Assembly (NCBI GenBank): GCA_036504955.1
Contig: DASXUI010000320.1
Coordinates: forward strand, 3,071 to 67,070
DNA length: 64,000 nucleotides
Source of the DNA: Armatimonadota bacterium
GTDB taxonomy: Bacteria; Armatimonadota; DTGP01; DASXUI01
Direction: 5' to 3'
Shown here: one piece after another, positions 29,650 through 57,156 of the stretch
Position numbering within the stretch: position 1 is the stretch's first letter
How the letters are laid out: each line of letters begins with the position of its first letter
Notes under the pieces: model-generated
Databases searched by the model: none
Seen by the model: only the letters and a program-made list of their open reading frames with translations
What the model was told of the DNA's origin: nothing
Translations under genes and position numbers: made by a program

Positions 29650-29949
29650 CGTTGTCTCCTTTCAAGCATGGGACTTCCGGTACTCCCAGTGTTCAGCTCT
29701 AGTAGGCGCTCCTCCTCTGACCTCATGCCGTGATACCCTTGCGCATACCTACCTCGGGCTCACCTGGTCGTCTAGCCTAGCCCACCTCACTTCCACTCAC
29801 TTCCGTCTCTCCCCAACATACCTCCAGACCACAAGTCCGCGGAGTCGAGGCGGCTTCTCCAGGGGAGGGCCTCATTTCCGCGAAATACCCGCCGTTCAAT
29901 GTCTCCCCCGACTTACCAACCTACGAGCATCCTCAGCAGGATCACATCA

Positions 29950-31880
29950 CATCCCATGGCCTGGTGAGCTACTAGGGGGTATTTCGAGGAATACCGGTGC
30001 TCCCAGCCTGCCAGCGACCTGCCTATGAGGTGTCAGTGGGTGCCTCTGGGCCTGTACTAAGGTGACGTTGGGCTGCTTGTGTGTTACCCTAGAGGAAGGG
30101 CCGAGAAGGGCCTTCCCTAAGAGTGCTATGCGGCCAGGCTGCGAGCCCCTTGCGGCCAAGCACGCCTGGGTGGTGTAGCTGGCAGTGCCAGCACCCAGGG
30201 CCCACCGGTGGGCGAAGACCGAGAGGGGGAGTCCGAGGAGGTCGGTCCCGGCCTCCCCTGCCGGGCCACCCAGTTCCAGGTCCAGCGTAGGTTCGCCAGC
30301 GTGGCCGCCAGGAGGGCTTGGCACAGGCTCTTGGCTCTCCCTCGGTACCGAGCTTGCCCCACCCCCAGAGCCCCCAGCCGGGCCAGTCCGTGCTCCACCA
30401 CCACTCGGTCGCTCAGCACCGCTTGTCCCTCCGGCGTCTGCTGGTAGGCTCGGGCGGCTTGGAGCAGCGCCTCCTGAGGATGCACCCGCACCTGGCGGCC
30501 CACCGCCGAGGCCGTGCATTGATTCCTCAGAGGGCAGCCTCCACAAGCGACTCCAAACTGGTAGAGGCGCCCTCCCTCTCCTTCCTTGACGAAGGTCCGC
30601 GTGGTCTGGCCCGCCGGACGGGTCACCGACTCGTCCTCCAGGTCTACTCTGAAGGCACTCTTGGGGAAGCGACCTCCCGGTCGGCTCTCCCGAGGCGCTC
30701 GAACGACCAGCTCTCGACCCGCCCCTGAAGGCCTGCCGGGTGGCTCCGCCGCCGTAGGCTCCGTCTCCCACCACTTGCTCCACCGCTTGCCCGGTAGTCT
30801 CCTCGACCCGCTCGATCGCCTCCAGCACCCCTTGAGCGTCTCCCGCGTTGCCCGGCAACAGCGCGCAGTCCAGAATGAGCTGGCTCTCCCGGTCCACGAC
30901 GACCGCCACCTTGTGTCCCGTGAAGCGCTTGTGGGCGCTCTTGTGGCCGTGGCGCTGTTCGGGATCGCTCACCGAGGGGATTCGGTCGGGGGCGGTGCCC
31001 TGCTTCAACTGAGCCCTCGGCCCTCCCTCGGGAGGTTCCTGCCACTCCACGTCCTGGAGCAGAAGCTGACTCAGCAGCTCGCAGGCCTCCTTCACCCGCT
31101 CCCGCTGGTTCTCTCCCACGAAGCTGGCCCAGTGCAACAGCCGTCGGGCGTCTGCCACGATCTCGGTCAGGAAGGCTTCCCGAGCCTGGGGATCCGACCA
31201 GTCCAGCTCCGCGCTGCCCTTCAGGCTGGGCCCGAAGTAGCGCCCCAATCCCTGCCGGGCGACCCAGGCCTCCAGCTTCTCCCCGCTGGCCTTGGCCAGC
31301 GCCCGGGTCACCTGCTGGATGCCCGCGGCCAAGAGGTTGTAGGTGTCCTCCACCGCGCCCTTCCCCAGCATCGGCTTGGTATCGACGGCGACCTTGAGCT
31401 TCCCGCCCTTCAGCAGGCCGGCCCGCCTTGCTTCCTGGAGGCTCCCCTCGAAGAGCTGCCGCACCCCCTCATGAAGGATCAGATGAGAGCGGAAGAGCTG
31501 CAGAGTGCTCTTGGCACACAAGGGGGCTCCCGCGTGTCGGTTCAAGACAGCGGCCCAGCGTAGGTCGAAGCCGCTGCGCTCTACCGCCTCCTCGTCGGAG
31601 CAGCCCGCCTGTTGTTGCAGCAGAAGCATTAGGGCCAGTTGAGAGGGAGGTACGCTGGGACGACCCACGCGCTCGGAGTAGCAGGCCAGGAAGGCCTCTT
31701 CCCGGAAGAGCCGGGGCGCGGCCTGGGCGAGCTGTCCGTGGAAGCTCCCCTCCGGCAACTCCAAAGGCCACACGTTTCCGACATTAAAGAGACTGACTTG
31801 CTTCTTGCGCCGACCCAGCATCCACTGACCTCCTGGGGTCCATCCTCAGGAAGGAATTCCACCAGCCAAACAAGGAACCC
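29950..31880 (-). mobile_element. IS1182-like (IS5 superfamily) insertion sequence with frameshifted transposase (boundaries approximate)
   Basis: Transposase ORFs 31821..~30650 and 30626..30126 in different frames. Motifs DPEQRHGHKSAHKRFTGHKVAVVVDRESQLILDCALLPGNAGDAQ (DDE) and C-terminal CGGCPLRNQCT...ARYRGRAKS are typical of IS1182-type transposases. Confidence 0.7.
30126..31821 (-). pseudogene. IS1182-family transposase, frameshifted
   Basis: After ~410 good residues the N-terminal 624-aa ORF runs into low-complexity junk (SRAGRSSASGEPTGRS...). The true C-terminal region continues in ORF 30626..30126. Confidence 0.7.
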
Positions 31881-37373: not shown

Positions 37374-37642
37374 ATCCGGTCGCGGGGTTCCTCGGTCCTC
37401 AGATGGATCTCCATCCTGAAAATGGGGCTCAGGAGGGCGGTGGATGCTGGGTTGGCGCATGAAGCAAGTCATTCCTCGAATGAAGGCAACGTCTGGCCCC
37501 TAGGACTACTGGAGGGGAGCTTCCATGGCCAGTTGGCCTAGGCCTGTCAAACGGCGCGAGGATCTGAGCCACTACACGGCGTCAAGAATTGAGCCACCCC
37601 TGGCCGGTAGGTGAGCCTGAAGTGGTGGGCGAGAGGCTCCTT

Positions 37643-38452
37643 TCAGACGGACGCGGACGGCGAGTCCGCCGGGCCGGTCGAGGGAACGTCTAGGGGTACA
37701 CCCGCGCGTTTGCGCTCCCTCAGCCGGTAGCTCTCCCCGCGGATGTGAACCACCGTGCAGCGGTGCAGCAACCGGTCCAGCGCGGCGGCAGCCATGACCG
37801 CGTCCCCCGCGGAGATCTCACCCCACTCCCCAAAGGCTTTGTTGGAGGTCAGGATGACCGACTGGCTCCGCTCATACCGATGGCACAGCGCCTGGAAGAG
37901 CAGCGACGCCTGGGTGTTGTCCAGGGTCAGGTAGCCTACCTCATCGAGGATCAGCACCTTGGGCTGCAGAAGCTTCCTCATCTCCCGGTGCAGCCGGTTC
38001 TCTGAAAACGCCAGGGAGAGCTTGCGGGCCAGCTCGATGGCCGAGGTGAAGTAGGCCCGGTGGCCGCGCTCACAGGCCAGGAGGCCCAACCCCAGCGCCA
38101 GGTGGGTCTTCCCGACGCCGGGCGCACCGAGGAAGACCAGGTTGCGGCCCTCATAGAGGAAGCGCAAGGTGGAGAGTTCCTCGATGAGGCGACGATCCAG
38201 CGAGGGTAGGGCCTCGAAATCGAAGTCGGCCAGCCGCTTGAGCAGGGGGAAGCGAGCGAACTTGAGGTTGAACTCTACGCTTCGTCGATGGCGTTCCTGG
38301 ACCTCAGCGTCCAGCAGGTAGCCCAGGAAGGCGCTGTAGCTCCAAGACTCCGCCGCCGCCCGCTGGCAAGCGCCATCGAGACGTTCCTGCACCCCCTTGA
38401 GTCCCAGCTTCTCCAGGGCGGCCTGGGCCTGCTCTTCGAGGAGAGGGGTCAC
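37643..38452 (-). CDS. istB: IS21 IstB ATPase helper
   Basis: GTG start at VTPLLEEQ. Walker A NLVFLGAPGVGKTHLALGLG, Walker B LLILDEVGYL, C-terminal SVILTSNKAFGEWGEI. The tracked ORF (to 38956) carries a spurious 168-aa low-complexity N-terminal extension. Confidence 0.8.
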   Translation of the reverse strand: MTPLLEEQAQAALEKLGLKGVQERLDGACQRAAAESWSYSAFLGYLLDAEVQERHRRSVEFNLKFARFPLLKRLADFDFEALPSLDRRLIEELSTLRFLYEGRNLVFLGAPGVGKTHLALGLGLLACERGHRAYFTSAIELARKLSLAFSENRLHREMRKLLQPKVLILDEVGYLTLDNTQASLLFQALCHRYERSQSVILTSNKAFGEWGEISAGDAVMAAAALDRLLHRCTVVHIRGESYRLRERKRAGVPLDVPSTGPADSPSASV

Positions 38453-38541
38453 GAGACCAACTCCTCGTAGTGGCTCAGGGGTGGCACGGTCACGGCCTCC
38501 GCCGCCGTCCACTGCAGCGCGGGCTGAGGCGGTGGGCTCTT

Positions 38542-39619
38542 CTAGAGGGTCTGCTGCCACAGAGCGGTGACGTGCTCGGCGGTGGCCACCGAGGCACCGG
38601 GAGCGCCGCGAGGGTGCTCGGCGAGGACCAGGTCCCCCAGCTTGACCTGGACCCGCTGCTCCTGCTGCACGACGACCACGGGCTGGCCCACGTACTGGGG
38701 CGGCACCGAGTAGCGCACACTGGCCAGGTGGACGAAGCCCTCGGCGTCCGCCCGGCGGGAGTGGCGCAGACAGAGCAAGTAGGGCGGGATCTCCGAGAGG
38801 GGGGACAGGCCCTCCCGAGGCAGCAGATCCAGGGGCCGCTCCCCGGTGGTGGCGTGAACGCGGCGGTTGGCTTGCTCTAGCCAGAGACGGCCCTGCTGGC
38901 TCAGGTCCTGAAGGCCCGCGAAGGAGCGGCCTCGCAGGAAGTTGTCTTTGAGGCAATCCACCCTCCGCTCCACCTTGCCCTTGGTGCGGGGCCGGTAAGG
39001 GCGGTGGGTACGCACGGCGAAGCCGTAGTGGGCGGAGAAGTCAGCGAAGAGGGGGTGCAAACCGCCCTGGGGTCGCTTCACCTGGGCCGTGTTGTGATAG
39101 AGGAGGGTGCTGGGCACCCCGCCCAGGAAGCTGAAGGCCCGCTGATGGCAGGTGATGAGGGTAGGCAGATCCATGGAGCGGGTGAACTCCAGGTAGAGCA
39201 GCCGGGAGAAGGAGAGGACTAGCACGAAGGCGTAGAGCTTGCCCTCTTCATCGGCCCCTATGTAGGCCCAGTCCACCTGGGCCTGGTGGCCTGGCGCGGT
39301 CTCGAAGCGCACGGTGGCTTTCCTCAGGTCCTGCTGCTACCGCATGGCCTCCATGGGCCGCTGGGCCAAGTCCACGGAGCCTGCGCAGCCCTGAGATCGA
39401 GGTCTGACCAGGAGCCGGGCGTCGGACAGCTCCCAGGCTTCGAGGCCCTTTTTCAGGTAGGGCTTGAGGGATCTGGACAGCTCGTGCGCCGAGGCTTCGG
39501 AGGGGCCGAGGCACCGTCTCCCGTAGCGCTCTGGCGACCGTGACGCGAGGGTAGCCGGTCCTTCGGGCAATCTCGCGTTACGAAAGTCGCTGGCGGAGTA
39601 GCCCCTTGATGTCCGGCAT
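38542..39619 (-). pseudogene. istA: IS21 IstA transposase, decayed (in-frame TAA, TAG and at least one frameshift)
   Basis: MPDIKGLLRQRLS*REIARRTGYPRVTVARALRE, with TAA at the conserved SQREIAR position. Frameshift, then ...AQRPMEAMR*QQDLRKATVRFETAPGHQAQVDWAY, with TAG where Q is expected. The DDE region is intact in ORF 39312..38542. Confidence 0.75.
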
Positions 39620-40089
39620 TCCTCTGGTCTGAGCATGGGAGGGCCTCCCTCGACGCCCTTAGCGATGGCTGCGCCAATGAAGCTCTCGGCCCAGAGTGGC
39701 TCACTTTACCACGCCGTCTGACACCCCAGACCGTGTCCGTGGACCAGAAGGTCCCACGATGGCCGCACGGGACGCCTACTAAGACCGGGCGCCGGCGACT
39801 GCCCTATCCGGTGGAGCCACGCGTGACTCAGGGGCGAGTAGGGCGGCGGATGGGACCACGAAGGACCTGTTCCGGCGGGTCTCGCAGTGCTAGGAGGGCC
39901 AACAGAAGCTCCGCGAGTGCGAGATGACTCTGCACCCCAGCACCAGACTGGACCTGACGTTGAGTGGCGTCCCGATCCGCGCGAGGGCGTTCTGGCGGGG
40001 ACTAGGGTTGTCGCGAGCTGGCTCTGGAAGTACGGGACCAGAACCGCGAAGGGCACCCGGAGAACCTGGATGCCCCAGTAGGTCGCGTC

Positions 40090-40482
40090 TCAGGATGCGG
40101 TCGCATCGCCCAATCGCTGGCCGGAGATCGTCTCCGGATCCTCTCCAGCTACGGCGCGGCCGATGTCCTCAATGGTGGCCCCAAGGCCAACCACCGCTTC
40201 CACGATGGCGTCGATCGAGGTGACTCCGCTGATGCCCCGTTCCAACCGGGAGGCCCGGGACTGGTTGATCCCCAGCTTCCCCCCAAGGTTCGCCTGGGTT
40301 AGGTTCTGGCCCTTGCGGAAGGTGCGGAAGAGCTTGGCGAGTCTGAGACGCAGCTCAACGCACGCCTCCAGCTCGGGGGTGAGCTGGAGGAAGTCGGCAT
40401 AGATGCCAGTGGACCATCCACCAGCGACCAGCCTGGCATCCTCCTCCGCGATCTTCGCACTATCCTCATCGGTGGGAGGCAC
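40090..40482 (-). CDS. XRE-family HTH protein, HigA-like antitoxin paralog (no adjacent toxin found)
   Basis: HTH LTQANLGGKLGINQSRASRLERG. Overall similarity to the 40921..41280 product. GTG start. Confidence 0.55.
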   Translation of the reverse strand: MPPTDEDSAKIAEEDARLVAGGWSTGIYADFLQLTPELEACVELRLRLAKLFRTFRKGQNLTQANLGGKLGINQSRASRLERGISGVTSIDAIVEAVVGLGATIEDIGRAVAGEDPETISGQRLGDATAS

Positions 40483-40920: not shown

Positions 40921-41280
40921 TCACTCTGCGACCACCTTGGCCTCACAGGTCCTGTCCAACTCGATTCCGGCGATGGCTAGTCCCACCTGCTCTACGGTTG
41001 CTCCGATGGAGTAGGCCATCAGAATCATGGCGTCCAGGGACGTGGAGGAATGGGCTTTCTGCATCTTCGCAACGCGGGAATGGTCTGTGCCTGCGGCAGC
41101 GGCTAGCCAAGTCTGTGTGAGCTGCCTCTCCTGCCGTTTCGCCCGAATGAGCCTCGCTACTCGTAAGCGAGTCTCTACCAGAGCGTGGTCTTCTGCGGAC
41201 AAGCCCAGAAGGTCTGCGTATCTCCCAATGGTCCACCCGTGGGAGATCAGGTTCGACCGCTCTTCATTGGTGAGCGGCAT
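40921..41280 (-). CDS. XRE-family HTH antitoxin (HigA-like)
   Basis: HTH LTQTWLAAAAGTDHSRVAKMQ. Lies immediately downstream of the RelE/ParE-like ORF in toxin-first HigBA order. Confidence 0.6.
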   Translation of the reverse strand: MPLTNEERSNLISHGWTIGRYADLLGLSAEDHALVETRLRVARLIRAKRQERQLTQTWLAAAAGTDHSRVAKMQKAHSSTSLDAMILMAYSIGATVEQVGLAIAGIELDRTCEAKVVAE

Positions 41281-41553: not shown

Positions 41554-42302
41554 GGGCTTCGAGCGAGGGGGCGTTCTTCCTGCCTGGGGCTCGCCTACAA
41601 CGAACTCAAGGTTGCGCTTCCCGTCGCTAGTTCAGGGAGGAATTGAAGGCCTACTCGCCATCCACACTGCTTCCTTCTCAGGGGTAGGCATCGTCGCACT
41701 CATCCCCTTGCCATGATTCAACCCCAAAGAACGCTACCTGCCCGGTATGGCCTGGGCGTTGACCCGAGGCTGCTGTGCCTTGGTGCCAGTGGGTACCGGA
41801 CAGTCGGGCTCCGGGAAGGCTACCGGACGGCCAGCTTTGCTCGGAGCGGCGTCAGGACGAGATTGGCAGGGCTTAACAAGGGGGCCATTCCTAGGAATAA
41901 CGGGCATGAGGGGTCTGGCAACGCCCAAAGGCCTAGACAACCAGGGAACAGATCTTAGGGCTGGCGCCAGGGATGGGGTAGGTCGATGCCGCTGGTGCCA
42001 GCAGCATCGCCAGGGCCGAACCCTTCCTCATGCTCAGCCATCTTCGCGGTTAGCTGCCCCAGCAAGGGTGAGTGGCTGACTCGGCCAAGCTCCCAGGGGG
42101 CCGACGCCCACCCTCACGCCAGAGGGGGACGATAATGAATCCCCAGAGATGGGCCACGCGCGGGTGCCTGTGGCCTCCAACGAGTATAGCGGACGCTTGG
42201 GCATCGGCCCCATGGGTGTCAATAGCCGCCCCGATCTGTACCACCCAGAGTCGGGTGGATCTGTACCACTTGGGCTGGGGGAGGTCGTTGCCTGGTAGTG
42301 GG

Positions 42303-42748
42303 CTAAGACTCAGTCAGAGCTGAGGGAGAGCCTCCTTCCTGGGGGAACAGGGAACGTCGTTGGCGTTGGCGGTAGCTCTCGCCGGTGAGGGCCGTGAGCT
42401 GGGCGTGGTGGGTTAGGCGGTCCAGCGCGGCGGAGGCCAGCAGCCCGTCGCCGAAGACCTCCGCCCACTCCGAGGGCGCCCGGTTGCTGGTGAGCAGAAT
42501 GCTGCCCCGCTCGTAGCGGCGCTGGAGGATCTCGTAGAGGTCCTCGGCTCCCGGGGCGCTGACGGGCCGCAGGCCGAAGTCGTCCAGGATCAGCAGGTCC
42601 ACGCAGCTCAGCTTCTGCAGCCGACGGGGGTAGGTGCCGTCGGCACGGGCGGCATAGAGGCCCGCCAGGAGTCGGTGGGTCGAAGCCGCCAGGACTCGGT
42701 AACCCCGGGAGAGCGCCTCGTAGCCCACGGCGATGGCCAGGTGGCTCT
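42303..42748 (-). pseudogene. istB: istB C-terminal fragment (from ...KSHLAIAVGYEA to the end) of IS21 copy 2
   Basis: SHLAIAVGYEALSRGYRVL...LLILDDFGL...SILLTSNRAPSEWAEVF...LDRLTHHAQLTALTGESYRQR. Resumes exactly at the Walker-A position where the N-terminal fragment breaks off. Confidence 0.75.
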
Positions 42749-43052
42749 TACTGCAACCCTCACACTGCACCTCTAGGTGAGGAGGTTCCCCTTCCGAGCA
42801 CAGTGACGGTGCTCGATCCACGCCATCCCCTCTGGGGCCTGACTCTTCCCCTGGTAGGCCGGGCCCATTCCTCCCTCCTGGGTCCCTGCTTCTGGGTGCT
42901 CCTTCGCGAAGGCGTCCGTCGCCTCGTCTCCGTCTCCTCCACCAACCTGGCCGCCGACCCGCTCCCCCTCTTCCCACTCCCCCTCAGTCTCGGTAGCATC
43001 CATCAGTTGCTGGCTACGTACGCTCGTGTCACATCCGGGCCAGCCGAGGGGG

Positions 43053-43274
43053 ATGCCCATGACCCGCTCGATCCCGCCCCCGCCTCTGGGGCTCCACTCT
43101 GGGGACCCCAGGCTGGGGGAGCAGCCGGAGAGCCCTCCGGTCTGCCTGCCGCCCCACCAAGTGTGGGCCACTCTCCAGCCCTTTCAGCGCCAGCGGGTGC
43201 TGCAGGCTCTCACCCGAGTGTGCCGAGCCCTGCTGACCCCCCAATCCCCGGAGGAGACCGATGAGCGCCTCTGA
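43053..43274 (+). CDS. Small protein translationally coupled to the serine recombinase (candidate accessory/directionality factor)
   Basis: GC3 about 80%. Its stop overlaps the recombinase ATG (43261). Pro-rich N-terminus then a helical VWATLQPFQRQRVLQALTRVCRALL. Start codon uncertain (43026/43053/43062). Confidence 0.35.
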   Translation: MPMTRSIPPPPLGLHSGDPRLGEQPESPPVCLPPHQVWATLQPFQRQRVLQALTRVCRALLTPQSPEETDERL

Positions 43275-45378
43275 CCCGTCCCTCGTGCCGCTGCCCGGCG
43301 CTCAGAAGGTGACCCCTCGCCATCGTCAGGGCTTGGCTTGCGTCTATGTCCGCCAATCCTGCCTCAAGCAGGTGGAGAACAACCGGGAGAGCCAGATCAA
43401 CCAGTACCGTCTGGCGGAGAAGGCCCAGGCTCTGGGCTGGCCTCCCGAGCAGGTACGCGTCATCGATAGCGACCTGGGCCTCTCCGCTCAGAGCAGCGAC
43501 GATCGCTCGGGCTTCAAGGAACTGGTGGCCGAGGTCTCCCTGGGCCATGTCGGGTTGGTCCTGGGCTACGAGGTCTCCCGCTTGGCCCGCAACAACAGCG
43601 ACTGGTACCATCTTCTGGACCTGGCCGCCGTCTTCGGCACCCTCATCGCCGATAGCGACGGTCTCTACGACCCTCGCTCCTACAATGACCGACTCCTGCT
43701 GGGGCTGAAGGGCACCATGAGCGAAGCCGAACTTCACCTGCTGCGCCAGCGCTTGGACGCGGGCCGCCTCACCCAGGTCCAGCGCAACGCCTACCGACAG
43801 CAGCTCCCCACGGGGCTGGAGCGGCGGCTCGATGGCACGGTGGTGAAGGATCCCGATGACCAGGTGCGGCACACCTTGGAGCTGGTCTTCGAGAAGTTCG
43901 AGGAGCTGGGCACCGCCCACGCGGTGATGCGCTACCTTCGCCAGGCCGAGATCCGGCTGCCCCGGCGGCAGCGCTGTGGGCCACAGCGCGGGGAGGTGCT
44001 CTGGAAGGTGGCCGCCGATTGGGCGGTCCGGGACATCCTGCGCAACCCCGCCTACGCCGGAGCCTTCGCCTATGGGCGGCGACAACTCGAACCCAGTCGG
44101 TTGCAGCCCGGCTTCCGGGCTACCGGGCGGTTGGCTCGCCCCGAGGAGGAGTGGCTGCATCTGGCTCAGGGGATCTACCCGGCCTACCTCTCCTGGGAGC
44201 AGTTCGAGGCCAACCAGGAACGGCTCCGAGCCAACAGCACCTTGAGCTGGGCCGCGACTCAGGAAGGGGCAGGACCGGTACGCGAGGGAGCTGCCCTGCT
44301 GCAGGGCTTGGTCTTCTGCGGCGCTTGCGGGCGGCGAATGCGCACGGTCTACCGCGGCGCCACCTACCGCTACGCTTGCGAGGCCTTGGCCAAGGAGCGA
44401 GACCTACCACGCTGCGGGTCGCTGTTGGGGCCTGCCCTGGACGAGAGGGTGGCCGAAGCCTTCCTGGCCGTGCTGCAGCCCGCGCAACTGAGCGCGCTGG
44501 AAGCCCTGTTGGCGGACCAGCAGCAGGAGCGCGAACGGCTCAGCCGCCACTGGGAGGAGCGGCTGAAGCGGGAGCGCTACGAAGCCGGACTGGCAGAGCG
44601 ACAGTACCGGGCGGTAGACCCGGAGAACCGTCTGGTGGCCGCCGAGCTGGAACGACGCTGGGAGGAGACGCTGCGCCGCCTTCAGGCCACCCAGCAGGAG
44701 TACGAGCGCTTTCGGCGCACGCTGGAGGTGCCCCAACTCAGCGAAGAGCAGAAGCAGCTTTTCGCCGAGATCTCGACTCGGCTACCGGGGCTGTGGGAGA
44801 GCGGTGAGCTGAGCCCCCCCCAGAAGAAGGAGTTGCTACGGAGCCTGGTGGACCGGGTGGTGGCCCGGCGGTGGGATTCGGGTACGGTGGAGCTGAGGAT
44901 CCTGTGGGTTTCGGGCCACTACACCGAGACCGTGGTCCGCCACTCCGTGACCCGATTGGTGGATGTGGCCGACTACGACCGGCTGGTCCTCCGGGTGGAG
45001 GCGCTGTGGCGAGAGGGACTGACGGATGAGGCGATCGCGGCGCGTCTCACCGAGGAAGGGCTGCGCTCAGCGCGCTCCCGGCGAATCCCGGCCCAGACCA
45101 TCCAGCAGCTTCGGCTAGAGCGGGGCTGGTATCAGAGGCTGCACCGCAGCCGAGGAGCCGATGAGGTGGAGGGCTACCTGACGGTGCGAGGGCTGGCCGT
45201 GCGGCTGGGAGTCAGGCGGGGTTGGGTCTACCGCTGGCTAGCGAGAAACCCGCTGCAGGAACGCTGGGTTCTAGGACATCCGAAAGGCGGTCTCTACCTG
45301 ATCCGGGCTGACGAGGAACTCCTCGCCCAACTACGTCGGTGCTTACCGGGGAAACCGGGTAGGCCAAAGGGGCATTGA
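43261..45378 (+). CDS. Large serine recombinase (resolvase/invertase N-domain + recombinase domain + zinc ribbon + coiled coil)
   Basis: Catalytic-Ser region ACVYVRQSCLKQ...QINQYR. Resolvase-domain motifs VSLGHVGLVLGYEVSRLARNNSDWYHLLDL. Zinc ribbon CGACGRRMRTVYRGATYRYAC...PRCGS. Long C-terminal coiled coil. 705 aa. Confidence 0.9.
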   Translation: MSASDPSLVPLPGAQKVTPRHRQGLACVYVRQSCLKQVENNRESQINQYRLAEKAQALGWPPEQVRVIDSDLGLSAQSSDDRSGFKELVAEVSLGHVGLVLGYEVSRLARNNSDWYHLLDLAAVFGTLIADSDGLYDPRSYNDRLLLGLKGTMSEAELHLLRQRLDAGRLTQVQRNAYRQQLPTGLERRLDGTVVKDPDDQVRHTLELVFEKFEELGTAHAVMRYLRQAEIRLPRRQRCGPQRGEVLWKVAADWAVRDILRNPAYAGAFAYGRRQLEPSRLQPGFRATGRLARPEEEWLHLAQGIYPAYLSWEQFEANQERLRANSTLSWAATQEGAGPVREGAALLQGLVFCGACGRRMRTVYRGATYRYACEALAKERDLPRCGSLLGPALDERVAEAFLAVLQPAQLSALEALLADQQQERERLSRHWEERLKRERYEAGLAERQYRAVDPENRLVAAELERRWEETLRRLQATQQEYERFRRTLEVPQLSEEQKQLFAEISTRLPGLWESGELSPPQKKELLRSLVDRVVARRWDSGTVELRILWVSGHYTETVVRHSVTRLVDVADYDRLVLRVEALWREGLTDEAIAARLTEEGLRSARSRRIPAQTIQQLRLERGWYQRLHRSRGADEVEGYLTVRGLAVRLGVRRGWVYRWLARNPLQERWVLGHPKGGLYLIRADEELLAQLRRCLPGKPGRPKGH

Positions 45379-45389
45379 GATGGCTGAGC

Positions 45390-45725
45390 TTTGCCCACGC
45401 CGGTCGGTCCGTAGAGCAGCCAGTTCTCCTGTCGGGCGATGAACTCACAGCTCGCCTGGCGCAGAACGAAGGCCCGGTCCAGGGTAGGCAAGGCGGCGAA
45501 GTCGAACTGGCTGAGGCGCTTGGGGCGCTCGAAGCCGGCTTCTCGCTCTCGGCGCTCCAAGACGTGCTGATGACGCCGGTCGATCTCGTCCTCGAGCAGC
45601 AGAGCGAGGAACTCCAGCGGGGAGAGCTGCTGACTCTGAGCCAACTCCACCCGTGCGTTGAGGGTGTTCAGCATCCCCGAGAGCTTCAGCTCCTTGAGCT
45701 TGGGGGCCAGGGGATGAGTCAGCAT
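45390..45725 (-). pseudogene. istB: istB N-terminal fragment of IS21 copy 2 (through Walker A GPTGVGK)
   Basis: MLTHPLAPKLKELKLSGMLNTLNARVELAQ...FDFAALPTLDRAFVLRQASCEFIARQENWLLYGPTGVGK, after which the frame runs into the inserted element. Confidence 0.75.
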
Positions 45726-47260
45726 GAGGGGGCCTCCGGGCCGAAGAACTCCTCAGGCTGCCGAGCATGGGCGTAGGTCCGAGGAGTCGCGGGGACCGCC
45801 TTCCCTTCCTCGGCGAGGGGTTCGCTGTCGAGGCCCGCGGCCAGGATGGCCTTGACCCGCCGGTAATGCGGGTCGCCGTAGTGCAGGGCTCGGGCGCAGG
45901 CCGCCTCCAGGCGCTCCCGACCCACCCGAGCCTCCAGCCCCACCAGGCTCTGCACCGCCCTCAGGTGGTCGGCGGGAGACTGAGCCAGGAGGTAGACCAC
46001 TAATAGATGACAAGAGGGGCCGACTTGCTGAGCGCGCTCCTGGCAGACTTCGGGCGTACGCTCCAGGTAGAGGGCCTTCTCCTTGGGGTAGTGCTCCAGG
46101 CGGGTGAAGCGCTCGCCGGGGCTTTGGGCTCGGGGATGGGTGATCACTAGCTCCGTGCCTCGGTAGAGCTGGAGGGTGTGCTCGTAGAGGTGGGCTTCCA
46201 GGGTCTGGCCCACCAGGGCGTGGGGCACCGAGTAGAAGCTGCCCTCCAGCACCACGTGGCAGTCCCGGTGCACCCGCACCTCGCGGACCGCCTCGAGCTG
46301 GAAGGGCTCGGGGGGGAGAGGTGCCAGGGCCTCCCGCTCCCGCTGGAAGCGGGCCAGGGGCGCTTCGTGAGTGGTGCCGTGGTCCCTTACGCCAGCGACC
46401 TCCCGCACCCAGACTCGCACCCGCTGGTTGGCGTCGGCGAGATCCACGAAGGAAGCCCCCGCCAGAAAGTTCCGCTGCAGGTAGCGGACGCCGTTCTCCA
46501 CCTTGCCCTTGTGCTGGGGGGTACGAGGGCGGCAGGGATGCAGCAGGAAGCCGTAGTGCTGGGCCATCTGGCGGTAAGGAGTGGAGAAGACCGGGTCCTC
46601 CAGAGCATGCTGGAGCACCCCGGCCTTCAGGTTGTCCAGGACGATCTCTTGAGGCGTGCCCTCGAAGCTCTCGAAGGCCCGGCGGTGGCAACCGATCCAG
46701 GTGGGCAGGGACTGGTCGAAGACGAACTCGACGTACTGATGCCGAGAATAGCTCAGGGTCATCAGGAAGGCGTAGGCGGGGCGTAGCTTGCCGGTGCCCG
46801 GGTCCTTCAGCTTCCCGACCGCGGTGAAGTCCACCTGGGCCTGGCGTCCGGGAGACGTCTCCAGGCGCACGGTGGCCTGGGGGCTCGGAGGGCGAAGATG
46901 CCGCACGAAGCGCCGTACCGAGGAGTAGCTTCCTGGGTAGCCGTGGTGCTGGACCAGTCGCTGGTGCATGGCGCTCTGCTCCACCCCTAAGCGCAGCCAC
47001 TCCTCGATCAGCGCTTGGTAGGGCTCTACGCTGGAGGGGCAGCGCGGAGGGGGAGCGGGCGGCCCCAGGTGGGCCAGCAGCAGGTCGGGAGGCGGCAAGG
47101 GCGTCCCAGGCTCCAGGAAGCCCTTCCCTCGGGCCAACTCATGGTAGCGGCGGACGGTCATACGGGAGTGTCCCAGGTCGCGGGCGATGGCCCGCTCGGA
47201 TTGCCCCTGTCGCAGGCGGTAGACGATGTCTTGGATGAGCTGCATGGGTAGTCGCTCCAT
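45719..47260 (-). CDS. istA: IS21 IstA transposase (intact, 513 aa)
   Basis: N-terminal HTH (IQDIVYRLRQGQSERAIARDLGHSRMTVRRY), second HTH (LVQHHGYPGSYSSVRRFV), DDE region (GRQAQVDFT...). Overlaps the istB start by 7 nt. Confidence 0.85.
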   Translation of the reverse strand: MERLPMQLIQDIVYRLRQGQSERAIARDLGHSRMTVRRYHELARGKGFLEPGTPLPPPDLLLAHLGPPAPPPRCPSSVEPYQALIEEWLRLGVEQSAMHQRLVQHHGYPGSYSSVRRFVRHLRPPSPQATVRLETSPGRQAQVDFTAVGKLKDPGTGKLRPAYAFLMTLSYSRHQYVEFVFDQSLPTWIGCHRRAFESFEGTPQEIVLDNLKAGVLQHALEDPVFSTPYRQMAQHYGFLLHPCRPRTPQHKGKVENGVRYLQRNFLAGASFVDLADANQRVRVWVREVAGVRDHGTTHEAPLARFQREREALAPLPPEPFQLEAVREVRVHRDCHVVLEGSFYSVPHALVGQTLEAHLYEHTLQLYRGTELVITHPRAQSPGERFTRLEHYPKEKALYLERTPEVCQERAQQVGPSCHLLVVYLLAQSPADHLRAVQSLVGLEARVGRERLEAACARALHYGDPHYRRVKAILAAGLDSEPLAEEGKAVPATPRTYAHARQPEEFFGPEAPSC

Positions 47261-47744
47261 CGGGCCTCCTCAGCTCTAGGAAGCCTGAAGAGGCTGGTCG
47301 AAAGCAACGACTTCCGCCGGCGGTGGGGTGGTCCAGATCGCCCGACTCCAGGTGGTACCGATCGGGCGACTCTGGGTGGTACAGATCCACCCGACTCCTA
47401 CTGGTACAGTCTAGGGCGGTCAGTGACACATGGGTGCTGGCTAAGCACCTGCATTCCCCGCCCCGAGTGCCCTGACTAGGGTCTGGGCTGACCCATGGCA
47501 GGCCCCGATGCCTGGTGGTGAAGACCGATCGGTCCATATGCCGTGCCTTCGGCAGCCTTAGAGGCAAGGGTCTCCTGCTCACTCACTACGTCTGAGGCGA
47601 CGGCATGAGGTGAGATCACACAGCCAATGGCTTCGGCCCTCTCCGCGTGGTCCTGACCGAACCCAACTACCGAGGCCATCTGCACGAGCCCCCTCCAGTT
47701 CCGCCTGAGAGCGTCGGTGAGGCAATGTCCGCCTCAGGTACAAC

Positions 47745-47960
47745 AACCGCCGGACATCACCTTCAGGTGGGTCATGGAGCATCTGAAGCCACCGGAGATA
47801 GTTCGCAGGTGGACCGTGAAACAACCGGGGAGCCACCGGACATTATCTGCAGGTGGACCGTGAAACAACCGGGGAGCCACCGGACATTACCTGCAGGTGG
47901 ACCGTGAAACAACCAGAGAGCCACCGGAAATGATCTGCAGGTGGACCGTCAGACACCCTT
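47745..47960. repeat. Tandem array of ~44-bp repeats (about 3 full copies plus a partial copy and degenerate leading copies)
   Basis: aggtggaccgtgaaacaaccggggagccaccggacattatctgc repeated head-to-tail with a few substitutions, ~300 bp outside the IS21 copy-2 terminus. No spacers. Confidence 0.7.
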
Positions 47961-50900
47961 AGAACGCAAGGCAATTGGGCAGAGTCGGCTAGGGGCCTTG
48001 AGCCCATACCTATCTGGCGGTTCGTCTCAGGAGACACCGGACACAGGGCTCACTGCCCATTCGATCTCCAGTGACCGGCCATGATCTAGCGTCGGCGAGG
48101 CATGCCGTGGGGTTGGAAAAAGCGGCAGATCCGGCGACGACCTCATGATGGCAACGGCCCCGATCGGGAGCACTCAGTGTCGGGTCAATCGGTACACCCT
48201 GGGGTGGCGGAGGCCGTTGTTGGATGATGGGCTGGAGAGCCTTCAGGCTCCAGGGGGGCTGCCCTCTGTGAGCTGCGGGCGCCTGGTGCCGCGTTAGGGA
48301 GATGGCGCGCGAGTTCCAACCATTTCCTCACGGCCCAGATCGGGGCTGCCGTGAGCCTGAGGCCATCGGCCACGTCGGCGGGACGACCCACTCAGATACG
48401 CGCCACCAAGGGCGGGTCGTTGATACCCCTGCAACTGCCTGGGTACCTTCGCACCGACCATACCCGCGGTGCACTGGCCCTTGCCCCCAGCTCGGCAACG
48501 GAGACACTCCGGAGCCTCGTCGCGGCGGCCGGTGGGCCAACGGCGTCCACGAGTCAGCTTGGCCGAGTAAGCGCCACCGGGCAACCTATACTCGCCCACG
48601 GGCCAGTGCGGGACTCCGCGGCGCTTCACCGGGCGTACTGCAGCCGCCCCCCGTACCTCGCGACACCAGGAGGAAGTCCCACTGGCGAACGGCCACTCAC
48701 ACGCTGGCGCAGGCATCGACAAGCGATGCTCTATAGTGGGCGAAGCCCTGCTCCCCAAGCCACCGTCGCTGACGTGCCCCCGGCCGCCCATGGGCCTGGC
48801 CCCCGGGACCGACTTCAGAGGGAGCCACCGCACGCCCGTTTGTGGGCGTACCGCACCAGCAGAATGTCTGTGTAATGCGGTGGCGGGGCGGCTCAGTGCC
48901 AGGGGCCTCCATATCGACTACTGTCGGGAATCTGAGACCGGGGGTTGCCCCACAGCACTAGCATCTAGGAGACAAGCGATGACATGCTCTTCCTGCTCTG
49001 CCATCGTTCCCAGCCGGCGTGGCAGCACCGCAGTGCCTGGGCGAAGCCCCTCATGCGACGGTACCTGCGTCCAGGCCCGTCGTTACGCGGACGGGCCATC
49101 CTGGCCTCCTGAGCATGTGGGGACCGCCACGGGAGGCACACCCACCCTTGCTACTGCGTCTTGAGTCTCACCAAGCAGACCTTAAGGGATCGTGGCGTGG
49201 GTCCCTGGCATACTCGGCACCCACGCAGTGTATGGGCCCAGAGGGCCTGGCTCTCGCAGCCCCATCGCCCCAGCCAGGCCCCCAACATGCCTCCCAGCCC
49301 TGAGGCCGGGCCTACCCATACCCACCCTCGTTTTCGTACGAGCACCAAGGGCATGGACGTCAGACACGGGTCCCCAAGGAGAGGCCAAGATCCCGCGCTC
49401 AGAAGTGAGGAGAGCAATGATGGCCTCGGCTCCTCCAGAACTGGATATCTAACAGTAGACTGCTCACTATACTGAGAGCGCGCACGCATCGGCTCATTGG
49501 GCAAGCACCGGGCTTGGCGCCCCCCGGCCCTCCGACCGCTGGCCTGTTACCGGCCGGACGCGAGCAGCGAGAGCGCGGCACCAGCAAGGCGGTGCGAGAT
49601 ATGTGGTTTCAGAGCGGTGTAGGGCCCCACAGACGAACATGCAAGGGCTACGAAGTGTGTTGTCATCTTATGTGGAGGTCCGAGGCCGGCACCCGCGAAG
49701 ACCCGTGGTGCTCCGGGCTCAGGGGAGGGCACCCCAATCACGGGTATGGATGCCACACCGTGCCAAGCACAGTACCGCTAGGGATGCCCCGCGGGCCATC
49801 TTACGAATAACACACGCCCTCGTCACCTCGTGTCTAGTGACAGTGGTCCACCTCAGGCAGGGCAATGCGACTGTGCCGGGTGGGAGTGGTGTGACGCAGA
49901 CAGATAGATGGTGGGTCCGACATAAACAAGCGATCCTAGGTATGGTTATGGACGCCAATATGGTATCCCCACGCTTGGATTCGTACCTACGAGAGGGGTT
50001 AAGGTACCCTCCAAATCCCCCTGAGGATCACATAAGCGCCCAAATGTGATCCAGTCAGGCCTGGTGAGGGGTACACTAGCTTCCCGGCCCATCAACATGG
50101 CTTCGCCTAAGGCGTGCGGACTTCCCTTCCCCTAGCTATCAGCGCTCAGCAGGGGAAAGGCCGGCTCTCCATCAACCGGTTCCTTCATGGGGCGTCAGAC
50201 TACCTGACTCCGGGGCATCGGCTCTGCCCTGTAGTCATGGCCCCCGTCTAGCGTCTGCTCACGGGCCGGCCGCTCTGCCTCGACGCAGGCGTCTGGACCT
50301 GAAACGCCTTGGAGGCATAAAGCCAACAGTGAAAGCGACTACCAGTGAGGCACTGAGCCCAGAGGCGCTGATGGCCGCAATGGCTGGTCCAACGCCGCTG
50401 CATAGCCCGGTTGACGGGGGGCACTGTTCACCTGTCCGTCACAGCAGGCCCAAGACGGGGACCGACAGGCCCACAGGCACAGCATGCCGAGCCCCCAACT
50501 TGGGGGGTGACGGGTATTGAGCAGGCGGGCCTGGGCGAGGGGACCCCTTGGGGGAACTGCCTGTACTCGATGTGGTGTACCCTGGGGGCTGCGCCCGAGT
50601 TGGCGGTCCCCACCTGGGGGGGCAAGATCGAGAGTGCGACCGGCTGAGGCACCGGGGCCACGCTCTTGTGGAAGTGCGCAGAATGGTGACGGCTGTCTCT
50701 CCCTTCTGCTGGGGATCCCACCGGAACCTAGCTCCCAGCCCCTTCTCGAATTGGCGTGGCGCCCGACCCGGCCGGCACAGTCTCGAAAACCAGGAGTGCA
50801 GAAGGTACTGCTGATCAGCACCAGATACGGATGGACCCGGCAGGGACTGTCAGAGATACTGCACGCCGAAGGGGCTGTGTGGTCTAGGAGGTGGCACCTG

Positions 50901-53316: not shown

Positions 53317-54315
53317 TCAGGCATTAACTCCGAGCTGGCAGGACGGCATCTGCTGTCGTACTAGCGCCCAATCCTCGGGCGTTAGCCGGTCGCGTCCCCT
53401 AGCTATGAGGCGGGAGACGTAAGCCTCGCCCTCGACCAGAGCCACTAAGGCCAGGGGGCGAGCGTTCTTCTCAGTCCATGCCCTTGTCTTCATGTAGTCG
53501 CGTACTCGCGGGGCGGTGTCGAGCCTTGACTTGGCCACCCTACCAAGAAACACGTCCCAGTTCTCCCAGGTACGCCACCTAGACTTCTGCTTGTTCGCGC
53601 CAGGCTCCTTGAAGTCAATGTACGACTTCAGGACGCCTGCCATTCCAGCCATTCCCTCCTCACAGATTCGATTGGCAGCCAGTTGTGCTGCTCTGTGCTT
53701 CAGTTCGAACTCCACTCGAATCCATGGGCCAGGCGTGTCAGTCTGGACTGCCTTGTCATAGATACGTAGGTATCTCTGCCCCTTGCGGCTTCCAAAGGAC
53801 TCCCCGTAGCTCACCTGCTCCCCATCGGCTGTGTTGCAGCCATGTGGAAGGTACGAAAGACCATTCCTGGCCCGGCAGACGTAGTAGCCCTGGCGTATGC
53901 GGCGCTGGATGTCCTGCATACTGAGGATGCCACAGTGGTCATCGACAGCCACATCAATCCGCTTCATGGAGGCGTTACTAGCCAAGAGGAGGCCGAGGAA
54001 CTCGCGCCACGTGTGACCGGGGGCATCGTCGGTGCCTTCGTTCCTAATGACTCCGATGCGCTCCAACTCACGGCATCCGCGACCGCTTAGCAGTAAGTAC
54101 GGTTCGCATGACTTCCGCTTGGTAAACCTGAAGATAGTTCCTGGCCTAGAGGCTCCGTACTGATGGTATCTCAGGTTCCTGGTGCCTATGAGGCTAAGAA
54201 GCTCGGAATGGTCAGAACCTTCTGGAAACCCCACCTTTAGGTAGTCGATGCATATCTGCGATGCACTTTGCAATTGTGTATTACTAAGGGAGCATCCGTC
54301 CATATTACCGTTCAT
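53317..54315 (-). CDS. Rep_trans-family rolling-circle replication initiator
   Basis: GSRKGQRYLRIYDKAVQTD and WIRVEFELKHRAAQ match the Rep_trans YxRiYDK...RvElElr signature. 332 aa. Confidence 0.65.
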   Translation of the reverse strand: MNGNMDGCSLSNTQLQSASQICIDYLKVGFPEGSDHSELLSLIGTRNLRYHQYGASRPGTIFRFTKRKSCEPYLLLSGRGCRELERIGVIRNEGTDDAPGHTWREFLGLLLASNASMKRIDVAVDDHCGILSMQDIQRRIRQGYYVCRARNGLSYLPHGCNTADGEQVSYGESFGSRKGQRYLRIYDKAVQTDTPGPWIRVEFELKHRAAQLAANRICEEGMAGMAGVLKSYIDFKEPGANKQKSRWRTWENWDVFLGRVAKSRLDTAPRVRDYMKTRAWTEKNARPLALVALVEGEAYVSRLIARGRDRLTPEDWALVRQQMPSCQLGVNA

Positions 54316-56010: not shown

Positions 56011-57156
56011 ATGGGTAGGAGACGGGGGCACAATGAGGGGTCAGTCCACTATCGCCATGACCGCGACCGCTGGGTTGCGGAGCTGACAGTGGAAGATGGG
56101 CGGCGCAGGCAGTTCTACTGCAAGACAGAGAAGGAAGCAAGAACCAAGCTCATCTCGGTGCTTGGCGATCTTCAAAGGGGGATGCTACCTTCAGGCCGCC
56201 AGCAGTCGGTGAAGGCCTTCCTTGAGCACTGGATCGAGAACGTTGCCAAACAGCAGGTTCGGCCCAAGACGTGGGACCGCTATAGCGGACAACTGAAGAA
56301 GCACATCGTTCCGGCTCTGGGCCGAAAGCAGCTAGGCAAGCTGTCCGCCCAGGACCTCCAAGTCTTCTATAATCGAAAGATATCTGAGGGCCTGGCGCCA
56401 CGCTCCGTTGTGCACATGCATCGTGTGCTCCACAAGGCTCTCGGAGAGGCTGTCAGGCTTGACCTCATCTCCCGAAACCCCTGTGCTCTCGTAAAGCCCC
56501 CGAAGGTATCTCAGTCACCGATCCGCTTCCTGACCGCAGAGGAGGCCAAAACACTCCTCGCGGCGGCCCAAGACGACCCTCTTGAGGCCCTCTATGTGCT
56601 GGCTCTGACCACCGGTATGCGCCAGGGAGAGCTGCTGGGGCTTAGGTGGGACTGTGTTGACCTGGATGGCCTGGCCGTCCATGTGCGCAGAACGGTCTAC
56701 TGGAGGCAGGGGCACGGCTTCGTCTGGTCCGAACCCAAGAGCAAGGCAAGCCAGCGTCGGGTTTCGCTTACAGAGGTGGCGGCGTCGACACTCCGACACC
56801 ACCGCGAACGGCAATCAACTTCCAGGCTGCTCGCTGGAGACGCCTGGTGTGAGCAAGGGCTCGTCTTCCCCAATAGCGTGGGGAACCCGATCAACGCCAA
56901 CAACCTACTGAATCGGTCTTTCAAGCCGCTGCTGGAGAGGGCGGGCCTCCCGAAGGTGCGTTTCCATGACCTCCGGCATTCGGCTGCGAGTCTGCTGCTG
57001 TCCCTAGGAACTCATCCGAAGATCGTGCAGGAGTTGCTTGGGCATAGCAGTATCAGTGTCACGCTTGATATCTACTCGCACGCGATCCCAACCCTCCAAG
57101 ACCAGGCTGTTAGCCAACTTGCAGACCTTCTGGGTCGGGGGCAAGGTTCAGCCTAG
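56011..57156 (+). CDS. int: Tyrosine integrase (phage integrase family)
   Basis: SAM-like core-binding region (VKAFLEHWIENVAKQQVRPKTWDRY). Catalytic motifs RFHDLRHSAAS, LLGHSSISVTLDIYSH (R..H..R..Y). Ends 98 bp from the tRNA 3' end. Confidence 0.9.
   Translation: MGRRRGHNEGSVHYRHDRDRWVAELTVEDGRRRQFYCKTEKEARTKLISVLGDLQRGMLPSGRQQSVKAFLEHWIENVAKQQVRPKTWDRYSGQLKKHIVPALGRKQLGKLSAQDLQVFYNRKISEGLAPRSVVHMHRVLHKALGEAVRLDLISRNPCALVKPPKVSQSPIRFLTAEEAKTLLAAAQDDPLEALYVLALTTGMRQGELLGLRWDCVDLDGLAVHVRRTVYWRQGHGFVWSEPKSKASQRRVSLTEVAASTLRHHRERQSTSRLLAGDAWCEQGLVFPNSVGNPINANNLLNRSFKPLLERAGLPKVRFHDLRHSAASLLLSLGTHPKIVQELLGHSSISVTLDIYSHAIPTLQDQAVSQLADLLGRGQGSA

Follow-up and report, generated by a model that had tools for sequence, protein, structure and literature searches.

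The locus described here raises the question of how an insertion-sequence gene came to be split exactly at the codon of its Walker-A lysine, and of what kind of DNA has split it. It lies in a stretch of 64,000 nucleotides (nt) from an Armatimonadota bacterium (GenBank assembly GCA_036504955.1, contig DASXUI010000320.1, positions 3,071 to 67,070 of the forward strand), which is called the window here and whose positions are used throughout. In this window, the istB gene of an IS21-family insertion sequence (IS) is interrupted by an insert of 2,643 bp that encodes a large serine recombinase (LSR) and two small open reading frames (ORFs). Our analysis indicates that the insert is very probably an autonomous, IS-sized integrative element, which would be mobile through its own LSR and belong to a family that targets other mobile elements. 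The anatomy of the insert, its junctions, the in-frame restoration of istB, the homology of its ends, the target pattern of the clades and the independent insertions in relatives are all directly visible in the data presented below.

The host of the insert is a complete IS21-family element (positions 42217-47428, minus strand; copy 2 in the following) that carries the 2,643-bp insertion; it was delimited by its inverted repeats and by Pfam matches to istA and to both halves of istB. A 54-nt inverted repeat, whose termini start with TGTCA, frames it at 42216-42269 and 47376-47429, and a 6-bp target-site duplication, CATGGG, can be read directly at 42211-42216 on the left and 47429-47434 on the right. 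The element is 5,212 bp long as found and 2,569 bp long without the insert. The features that characterise the IS21 family are all present, namely istA (rve) followed by istB (AAA+), inverted repeats starting with TGT, and a target duplication in the range of 4-8 bp (here 6). The istA transposase gene (45719-47260, minus strand; 508-513 aa) is seemingly intact, with Pfam rve, Mu-transpos_C_2 and helix-turn-helix (HTH) domains.

The istB gene is found in two pieces, both on the minus strand. The N-terminal half (45390-45725, codons 1-112) ends in LLYGPTGVGK and matches positions 2-105 of the Pfam IstB_IS21 profile (E 1e-19); it is part of an ORF at 45294-45725 that reads MLTHPL...NWLLYGPTGVGK and then continues with 31 foreign codons down to 45294. 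The C-terminal half (42303-42749) starts with KSHLAIAVGY, runs to the istB stop and matches profile positions 105-236 (E 5e-41); it belongs to an ORF at 42303-42977 that includes ...KSHLAIAVGYEALSRGYRVL... (KSHLAIAVGY). Since the two pieces meet at profile position 105, they are the two halves of one gene that was cut at the Walker-A lysine. An earlier interpretation of this DNA, made from its letters without database searches (the sequence-only reading), had placed the split inside the Walker-A codons, which the abutting Pfam halves bear out. It had also let istB resume at 42748; the resumption is correct, but the coordinate is not, as the left lysine codon occupies 42747-42749. According to a passage in PMC11208146, IS21 transposition depends on IstB, a dedicated AAA+ regulator. 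With its P-loop split, this IS21 copy should thus be disabled.

Two further repeats were noted around this IS21. A 77-nt piece of its left end (42228-42304) is 74% identical to 48157-48233; the second sequence could be an IS21-like end, either solo or a remnant. About 360 bp past its right end, there is a tandem array (47787-47949) with a 44-nt unit in 3.7 copies and 83% matches.

The body of the inserted element, as delimited by the istB halves, covers 42750-45390 on the plus strand (2,641 bp, or 2,643 bp with one copy of the core). The dinucleotide TT is common to both junctions, at 42748-42749 in attL and at 45391-45392 in attR, and corresponds to the AA of the Walker-A lysine codon on the istB strand; on the plus strand, this codon reads ctt at 42747-42749 on the left and ttt at 45390-45392 on the right. 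The presence of TT at both junctions is the signature of an LSR crossover, and the 2-bp core explains the lysine codon that the sequence-only reading had observed on either side. On the plus strand, attL is ...GGTGGCTC-TT-ACTGCAACCCTCACACTGCACC... and attR is ...GGGGCATTGAGATGGCTGAGCT-TT-GCCCACGCC..., so named after the attachment (att) sites of LSR systems. From these, an empty attB of ...GGTGGCTC-TT-GCCCACGCC... and an attP junction of ...GATGGCTGAGCT-TT-ACTGCAACCC... were reconstructed. When the flanks are joined via one TT, the result is ...CCGACCGGCGTGGGCAAGAGCCACCTGGCC, which encodes PTGVGKSHLA, with GTG GGC AAG AGC CAC (V G K S H) in frame.

The two arms of the reconstructed attP are ACTGCAACCCTCACACTGCACC on the left (42750-42771, plus strand) and GGGGCATTGAGATGGCTGAGCT on the right (45369-45390, plus strand), the latter including the stop codon of the LSR gene. 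They form an imperfect inverted repeat, with 14 of 22 positions symmetric about the TT core. Moreover, both ends of the element align in register with those of its relatives; the left arm is homologous to the left ends AAcnCAACC....TAaTaCCCC, and the right arm to the conserved right end GGaGGCAtt..gATGGaTG...T. Across the family, the conserved ends are GGaG(c/t)AT..n.ATG...... on the right and A(a/c)cg/nCAAC....TAaTaCCCC on the left. The claim of a self-contained and precisely bounded LSR insertion thus holds from the istB flanks and the Pfam domains.

The predicted empty site was compared with other sequences. In a metagenome scan, its 30-mer had one match, in the unbroken istB of another IS21 (istA identity about 70%) from a Joint Genome Institute (JGI) metagenome, which confirms the sequence of the site and is not an empty copy of this IS21. 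A comparison of 600 nt of the reconstructed istB against all plasmids gave one matching stretch only, the 48 nt across the junction, which are 87.5% identical to intact, annotated istB genes of ISPsy4. These two matches indicate that the DNA encoding Walker A is uninterrupted in intact genes and is the best-conserved part of istB; in length, the conserved stretch is comparable to an LSR attB. The sequence-only reading had considered an assembly chimera as an explanation that would undo it. An independent Logan contig (SRR11794808, 2,716 bp) is 100% identical to the window at 42705-45420 and crosses both junctions, which means that the split of istB is not an artefact of this kind.

The LSR gene occupies 43261-45378 on the plus strand and encodes 705 aa. 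All of its Pfam matches are over the cut-offs: Resolvase with 58.5 bits (cut-off 23.3) at residues 27-176, Recombinase with 56.9 bits and Zn_ribbon_recom with 31.5 bits. The catalytic Ser33, within YVRQS, is invariant across 27 homologs, and the zinc-ribbon cysteines C353, C356, C373 and C385 are likewise invariant. By its domains and residues, the protein is a canonical LSR that has kept everything invariant in its family. In an AlphaFold (AF2) model with a mean predicted local distance difference test score (pLDDT) of 75, a coiled coil is formed by the long helices 407-485; after it come a small beta sheet, a unit of three helices and a unit resembling a winged helix. The C-terminal extension of about 200 aa contains HTH-like modules, with a weak excisionase-type HTH match at 639-665. 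This extension is specific to the family; a search of 1.84 billion representatives at 50% identity found it in 707 clusters, the full-length members of which are 680-735 aa long. No named NCBIfam model fits the LSR, the best match being XisF (NF041201) with 76.6 bits against an equivalog cut-off of 375 bits. Its relatives in the PDB match only within the catalytic domain, and DUF4368 was absent from the Pfam scan of the protein.

The family to which this LSR belongs is large. At least 8,000 database matches were obtained, of which the top 120 are full length and 54-60% identical; the nearest LSR among 5.8 billion proteins is only 60% identical. Most of these 120 lie on contigs of 2.4-5 kb, which is a signature of collapsed repeats. 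A scan of one genome per species gave at least 592 relatives, from which 80 loci (numbered with L below) were kept from Chloroflexota, Cyanobacteria, many Alphaproteobacteria, Planctomycetota, Acidobacteriota, Actinomycetota and Wolbachia. On plasmids, mainly rhizobial ones, 935 copies were present in 470 records. Only 3 relatives were found in 2.9 million viral contigs, and this number, set against the genome and plasmid matches, suggests that the family is not phage-borne. The sequence-only reading had called an LSR-only element of this size unusual; this is true relative to the literature, but such elements are not rare in nature.

In two relatives, what is repeated is the LSR element and not the IS21 around it. 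In Rhizobium altiplani, a repeat of 2,525 identical nt is located at the ends of five contigs, where it is joined to at least two different IstB N-parts and three different IstB C-parts. The element encoding the LSR P0016, which belongs to the clade of the window's LSR, is joined to two different IstB N-parts, ending in GRPGTGK and GPSGVGK. These cases suggest that the element moves by itself. By the ISfinder definition, an IS is shorter than about 3 kb, has mobility genes only and is multicopy; the insert has 2,643 bp with an LSR and two small ORFs, in one copy in the window, and relatives have several identical copies.

The targets of the family were identified by clustering the flanking reading frames and checking them with Pfam, and 67 loci were usable, each with an outside flank of 300 bp or more. 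In at least 52 of the 67, the element is located within a gene of another mobile element, and several further loci adjoin IS110, IS4, IS30 or IS481-like transposases. The safe-harbour strategy that had been proposed from this one sequence is thereby strongly supported at the level of the family. IS21 istB is split either at the Walker-A lysine or, at a second site, between W..vFG and D. Group II intron reverse transcriptase (RT) genes are split between DIKxCFD and RI.H, and IS66 tnpB between LL(E/D) and GIDWR. Further targets are IS21 istA (directly after PYTPQTKG, L076), IS3-type transposases (after PANPYDKG in L074 and before SDDNPFSE in L011), an IS630-type transposase (L059) and another LSR gene (between ...DGIYDLS and ..NDRLLLG, L025). 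The splits fall at conserved protein motifs. Moreover, a neighbour-joining tree of 71 LSRs has clades that agree with the target classes, and it places the window's LSR in the Walker-A clade. In precomputed Pfam calls, the loci of P0013, P0095 and P0016 (LSRs 56-57% identical) have the order IstA, IstB N-fragment, small ORF, LSR, IstB C-fragment.

Several loci with particular arrangements were observed in this set. On a plasmid of Mesorhizobium sp. AR07 (L025, 4503-8471), the LSR element is nested within the other LSR gene. A second LSR of the family lies close by in L090 (5355-7571) and L006 (4503-5335). The Wolbachia endosymbiont of Cantharis cryptica (NZ_OZ195521.1) has two copies, L028 and L029, with identical ends (AACGATCAATCACCTTAATACCCCC... 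and ...GGAGTATCAACATGCATAGTC). They are flanked by ordinary chromosomal genes, with no recognisable mobile-element gene, and the family has thus reached an obligate endosymbiont.

The orientation of the window's copy provides a further view of the crossover. Close relatives were examined for orientation at L004, L005, L007, L035, L086, L088, L090-L094 and L095. Eight close relatives, with LSRs 49-58% identical, use the same lysine codon, and in these the core is AA in the orientation of the LSR and istB runs parallel to the LSR gene. In the window, the core is TT and istB is antiparallel to the LSR gene, so the orientation of this copy is the reverse of that seen in all eight. The right end of the element, ...ATGGCTGAGCT, is followed by TT in the window and by AA in a relative; similarly, the right end of P0016 is GGAGGCATTTAGATGGCTGAGCT and then AA, while the nearly identical GGGGCATTGAGATGGCTGAGCT of the window is followed by TT. 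In the Bxb1 and phiC31 systems, the central dinucleotide alone sets the polarity of integration. According to this rule, a change of the core from AA to TT predicts an inverted insertion at the same lysine codon, as it is seen here. The inverted orientation together with the TT core is strong internal evidence for a canonical LSR crossover at that dinucleotide.

Upstream of the LSR gene, the sequence-only reading had noted one small ORF whose stop overlaps the LSR start. The LSR and the overlap were confirmed, but there are two conserved small ORFs and not one. ORF-A (42803-43264, plus strand, 153 aa) starts with MTVLDPRHPLWG, has a conserved N-terminal domain of about 80 aa, and its stop overlaps the ATG of the LSR gene (ATGA). 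ORF-B (43026-43274, plus strand) has the motif VW..L.p.Q...V...L..VC..L, lies in another frame, and overlaps both the tail of ORF-A and the LSR start. The GC content by codon position indicates coding in the ORF-A frame until about 43000, after which the signal moves to the ORF-B frame, where the third-position GC (GC3) signal covers 43020-43270. The ORF-A frame stays open to the LSR start though its GC3 signal stops at about 43000, and a programmed frameshift that joins ORF-A and ORF-B is possible.

In 76 of the 80 related loci, along with the conserved ends, the LSR gene is preceded by a homologue of ORF-A with the motif V.DP.HPL(F/Y)G...IP..AT.L...LS..S...L. As a sole query, the window's ORF-A gave no matches in a protein search, since it is mostly overlooked by gene callers and the word index is limiting; a profile built from ORF-A translations found 633 homologs, every one annotated as hypothetical. 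Aligned homologs match DUF5372 (PF17342, gathering threshold 25 bits) with 90.4 bits on pNGR234a, 27.8 bits at L038 and 19 bits at L005. The window's own ORF-A is too divergent and has no DUF5372 match even at E <= 1, and the Pfam and NCBIfam scans of ORF-A and ORF-B of the window returned nothing. The link to DUF5372 thus rests on transitive homology, through which the N-terminal domain of ORF-A is predicted to be a divergent DUF5372-like small beta-barrel plus helix. ORF-B is called by gene finders in the window and in relatives, is 33-37% identical within the clade and is present in other clades too. A four-gene variant of the element was also observed at L085 (pNGR234a, NC_000914.2, 33989-37258) and at L074 and L081. 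It encodes a DUF5372 protein (89 aa), an HTH_28/29/32 protein (149 aa), an 88-aa protein annotated as 'transposase' and a 694-aa recombinase, and there are three copies of it on pNGR234a and six on pNGR234b.

We propose a mechanism on the basis of the established biology of LSRs, in which the element would move by conservative site-specific recombination through its own LSR. A circular intermediate would carry attP in the form of the imperfect inverted repeat of the two ends around the TT core. The LSR would pair this attP with attB, the DNA for the Walker-A loop of IstB, and the crossover would fall on the AA that opens the catalytic lysine codon, through staggered 2-nt cleavage, subunit rotation and religation. 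Integration would split istB and leave the core dinucleotide at both junctions, and excision would restore istB exactly. ORF-A, ORF-B or both might act as accessory or directionality factors, and the extra C-terminal HTH modules might contribute to site recognition or to excision independent of a recombination directionality factor (RDF). If IstB is provided in trans, the element might also hitch-hike on IS21, which would be possible because istA and the IS ends are intact. At the level of the family, each clade would be specialised on the coding sequence of a conserved motif in another mobile element. Such target sites would be multicopy, horizontally mobile, harmless to the host if disrupted, and unable to mutate away.

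The surroundings of copy 2 contain several other genes of mobile elements. A second, different IS21-family element (copy 1) is located at 37545-39723, with an inverted repeat at 37545-37573 and 39695-39723; its IstB is intact (Pfam profile 2-237), its IstA is present only as a 256-aa fragment ORF, and it carries no LSR element. Between both IS21s, there are two paralogous HTH_37/HTH_31 (antitoxin-like) genes on the minus strand, at 40090-40482 and 40921-41280, and the small ORFs beside them could be toxin partners. An IS4/IS5-type transposase is encoded at 29947-31821, a Rep_trans replication initiator at 53317-54315 (minus strand) and a tyrosine integrase at 56011-57156 (plus strand). The last two suggest that this IS-rich region adjoins or lies within an integrative element.

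A number of observations weigh against an autonomous element that targets mobile elements, and they have to be considered together with the other explanations. No additional copy of the element or of its LSR occurs in the 64-kb window. Exact IstA look-ups for an uninterrupted copy of the same IS21 returned the source contig alone, and the 30-mer of the attP junction, which would mark the circular form, had no match in viral contigs, the one collection scanned. A promoter and terminator scan, uninformative for this phylum, recognised no promoter. The Walker-A DNA of the copy-1 IS21 (CCCGGCGTCGGG-AA-GACCCACCTGGCG), 5 kb away, is identical to attB at about 24 of 29 positions and yet it is unoccupied. 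In the family as a whole, about 7 of the 67 loci, including the two Wolbachia copies, have ordinary chromosomal flanks, so the targeting is not absolute. The single copy, the failure to find an empty site or a circular form, and the unoccupied istB nearby would also fit a stranded and immobile fossil of a once-active element, and with the nearest LSR at 60% identity, no recent siblings are visible. We consider such a fossil unlikely, since the LSR ORF is full length and keeps every family-invariant residue (among them Ser33 and the four cysteines of the zinc ribbon), the att cores on both sides are intact and do not differ, and ORF-A and ORF-B are open with a coding-type GC3 signal.

That removal of the insert would restore istB exactly, while istA and the IS ends of the host are intact, might also be expected of an LSR cassette that is a domesticated on/off switch of IS21 and not a selfish element. 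Mageeney et al. (2020) mentioned, in one sentence, integrative elements that disrupt Pfam IstB_IS21 among the candidates for such regulated gene integrity (PMC7192596). On the other hand, this module, ends included, recurs in unrelated target genes (group II intron RT, IS66 tnpB, IS3, istA and other LSR genes) and in different IS21 lineages within one genome, which is the behaviour of an independent mobile element. Moreover, a selfish IS has no obvious gain from a 2.6-kb switch, and the window's copy is oriented opposite to its relatives, so that we regard the switch as quite improbable. The neighbourhood, rich in mobile-element genes (Rep_trans, tyrosine integrase, IS4/5 transposase and a second IS21), could have suggested that the recombinase belongs to a larger prophage, integrative and conjugative element (ICE) or transposon with genes elsewhere, or else that the split is an assembly chimera. 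Both are effectively refuted and retain hardly any probability. The istB halves lie on one strand, in the right order and exactly 2,643 bp apart, inside a single IS21 with inverted repeats and a target duplication of its own; an independent assembly covers both junctions; and the relatives are the same compact unit, on repeat contigs of 2.4-3.3 kb, in a family nearly absent from viral contigs.

The autonomous-element interpretation may also have a wider meaning. We suggest tentatively, with a little less than even confidence, that the family is a large and essentially undescribed class of IS-sized 'hyperparasitic' LSR elements, which would have been repeatedly retargeted to the codons of catalytic motifs, would reversibly disable and ride their carriers, and would use the DUF5372-like protein and ORF-B as a new accessory or directionality system. 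With the same reserve, the motifs of this retargeting would be the IstB Walker A, W..vFGD, the DDE region of IstA and IS3, the group II intron RT, LLEGIDW of IS66 TnpB, and other LSR genes. If this is true, the family would provide a natural collection of compact LSRs whose att sites are known, diverse and easily reprogrammed, and bacterial genomes and plasmids would have a previously unrecognised layer of control over the activity of IS21, IS66 and introns.

The LSRs are usually studied as integrases of phages and ICEs, and here the recombinase is almost the whole element, in an abundant family. This changes how genes annotated as 'recombinase family protein' and 'pseudogenised' transposases are counted and interpreted, especially on rhizobial plasmids. 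It also offers a model of nested parasitism, in which one may ask whether invasion silences IS21, IS66 and introns and whether the invader hitch-hikes. The many natural LSR/att pairs with clade-specific targets, along with the AA and TT core swap that flips the orientation, are useful both for understanding the specificity of LSRs and for engineering it.

In the literature, besides the sentence of Mageeney et al., Hilton et al. (2016) reported serine-recombinase interruption elements in many cyanobacterial genes, two of which were transposase genes (PMC4874684). Durrant et al. classed LSRs by target behaviour, with a multi-targeting clade defined by DUF4368, and made no mention of such minimal elements (bioRxiv 10.1101/2021.11.05.467528). 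The open-access and bioRxiv full texts searched contained no dedicated description of this family, though it may be described elsewhere, and DUF5372 was unmentioned in the open-access and bioRxiv literature searched.

Compared with the large serine integrases of phages and ICEs (Bxb1, phiC31, A118/LI and TP901-1), the LSR of the window has the same domain order of resolvase, recombinase and zinc ribbon with coiled coil. The 2-bp core at attL and attR, the imperfectly palindromic attP and the polarity set by the core are also alike. Unlike these systems of 10 to more than 100 kb, the element has 2.6 kb and nearly no cargo, its target is a gene of a mobile element and not of the host, and its LSR bears the extra C-terminal extension of about 200 aa with HTH-like modules. 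With the LSRs that are solved or named, the sequence similarity is confined to the catalytic domain. The XisF-type interruption elements of cyanobacteria and the sporulation intervening elements (skin/SpoIVCA) likewise bear an LSR, are intragenic and restore the gene on excision, but they interrupt developmental genes of the host and excise in terminal cells. The family of the present element, in contrast, is overwhelmingly found in mobile-element genes, in many phyla and in multiple copies. Assignment to the XisF equivalog was rejected by its score of 76.6 bits, below the cut-off of 375 bits.

TnpX and TndX of Tn4451 and Tn5397 resemble the LSR of the window in that an LSR is the sole mobility enzyme, with a circular intermediate and a long protein (about 700 aa in TnpX). 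These transposons, however, carry resistance or conjugation cargo and are promiscuous, whereas the clades of the present family each have one specific conserved target. A TnpX-like assignment was rejected, as DUF4368 is absent, only the catalytic domain of TnpX matches, and the targets are clade-specific. The IS607 family is also IS-sized and uses a serine recombinase instead of a DDE transposase. The IS607 transposases are small, have a MerR-like HTH N-terminal to the catalytic domain and show little target specificity. An IS607-like assignment was rejected as well, because the 705-aa protein has an N-terminal catalytic domain followed by the Recombinase and Zn-ribbon domains and the element has a high target specificity.

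Inteins, homing endonuclease genes and the 'res-hunter' Tn5053 are analogous in strategy only, in that they use a conserved, unmutable motif or a mobile element as target. Their chemistry is entirely different, and the present element offers no rescue by splicing, so that the target gene would be inactive until the element excises. The chemistry is thus of a known kind, that of an LSR integrative element. What goes beyond the descriptions found is the IS-like minimal form, the DUF5372-like and ORF-B companions and, above all, the homing into the motif codons of other mobile elements.

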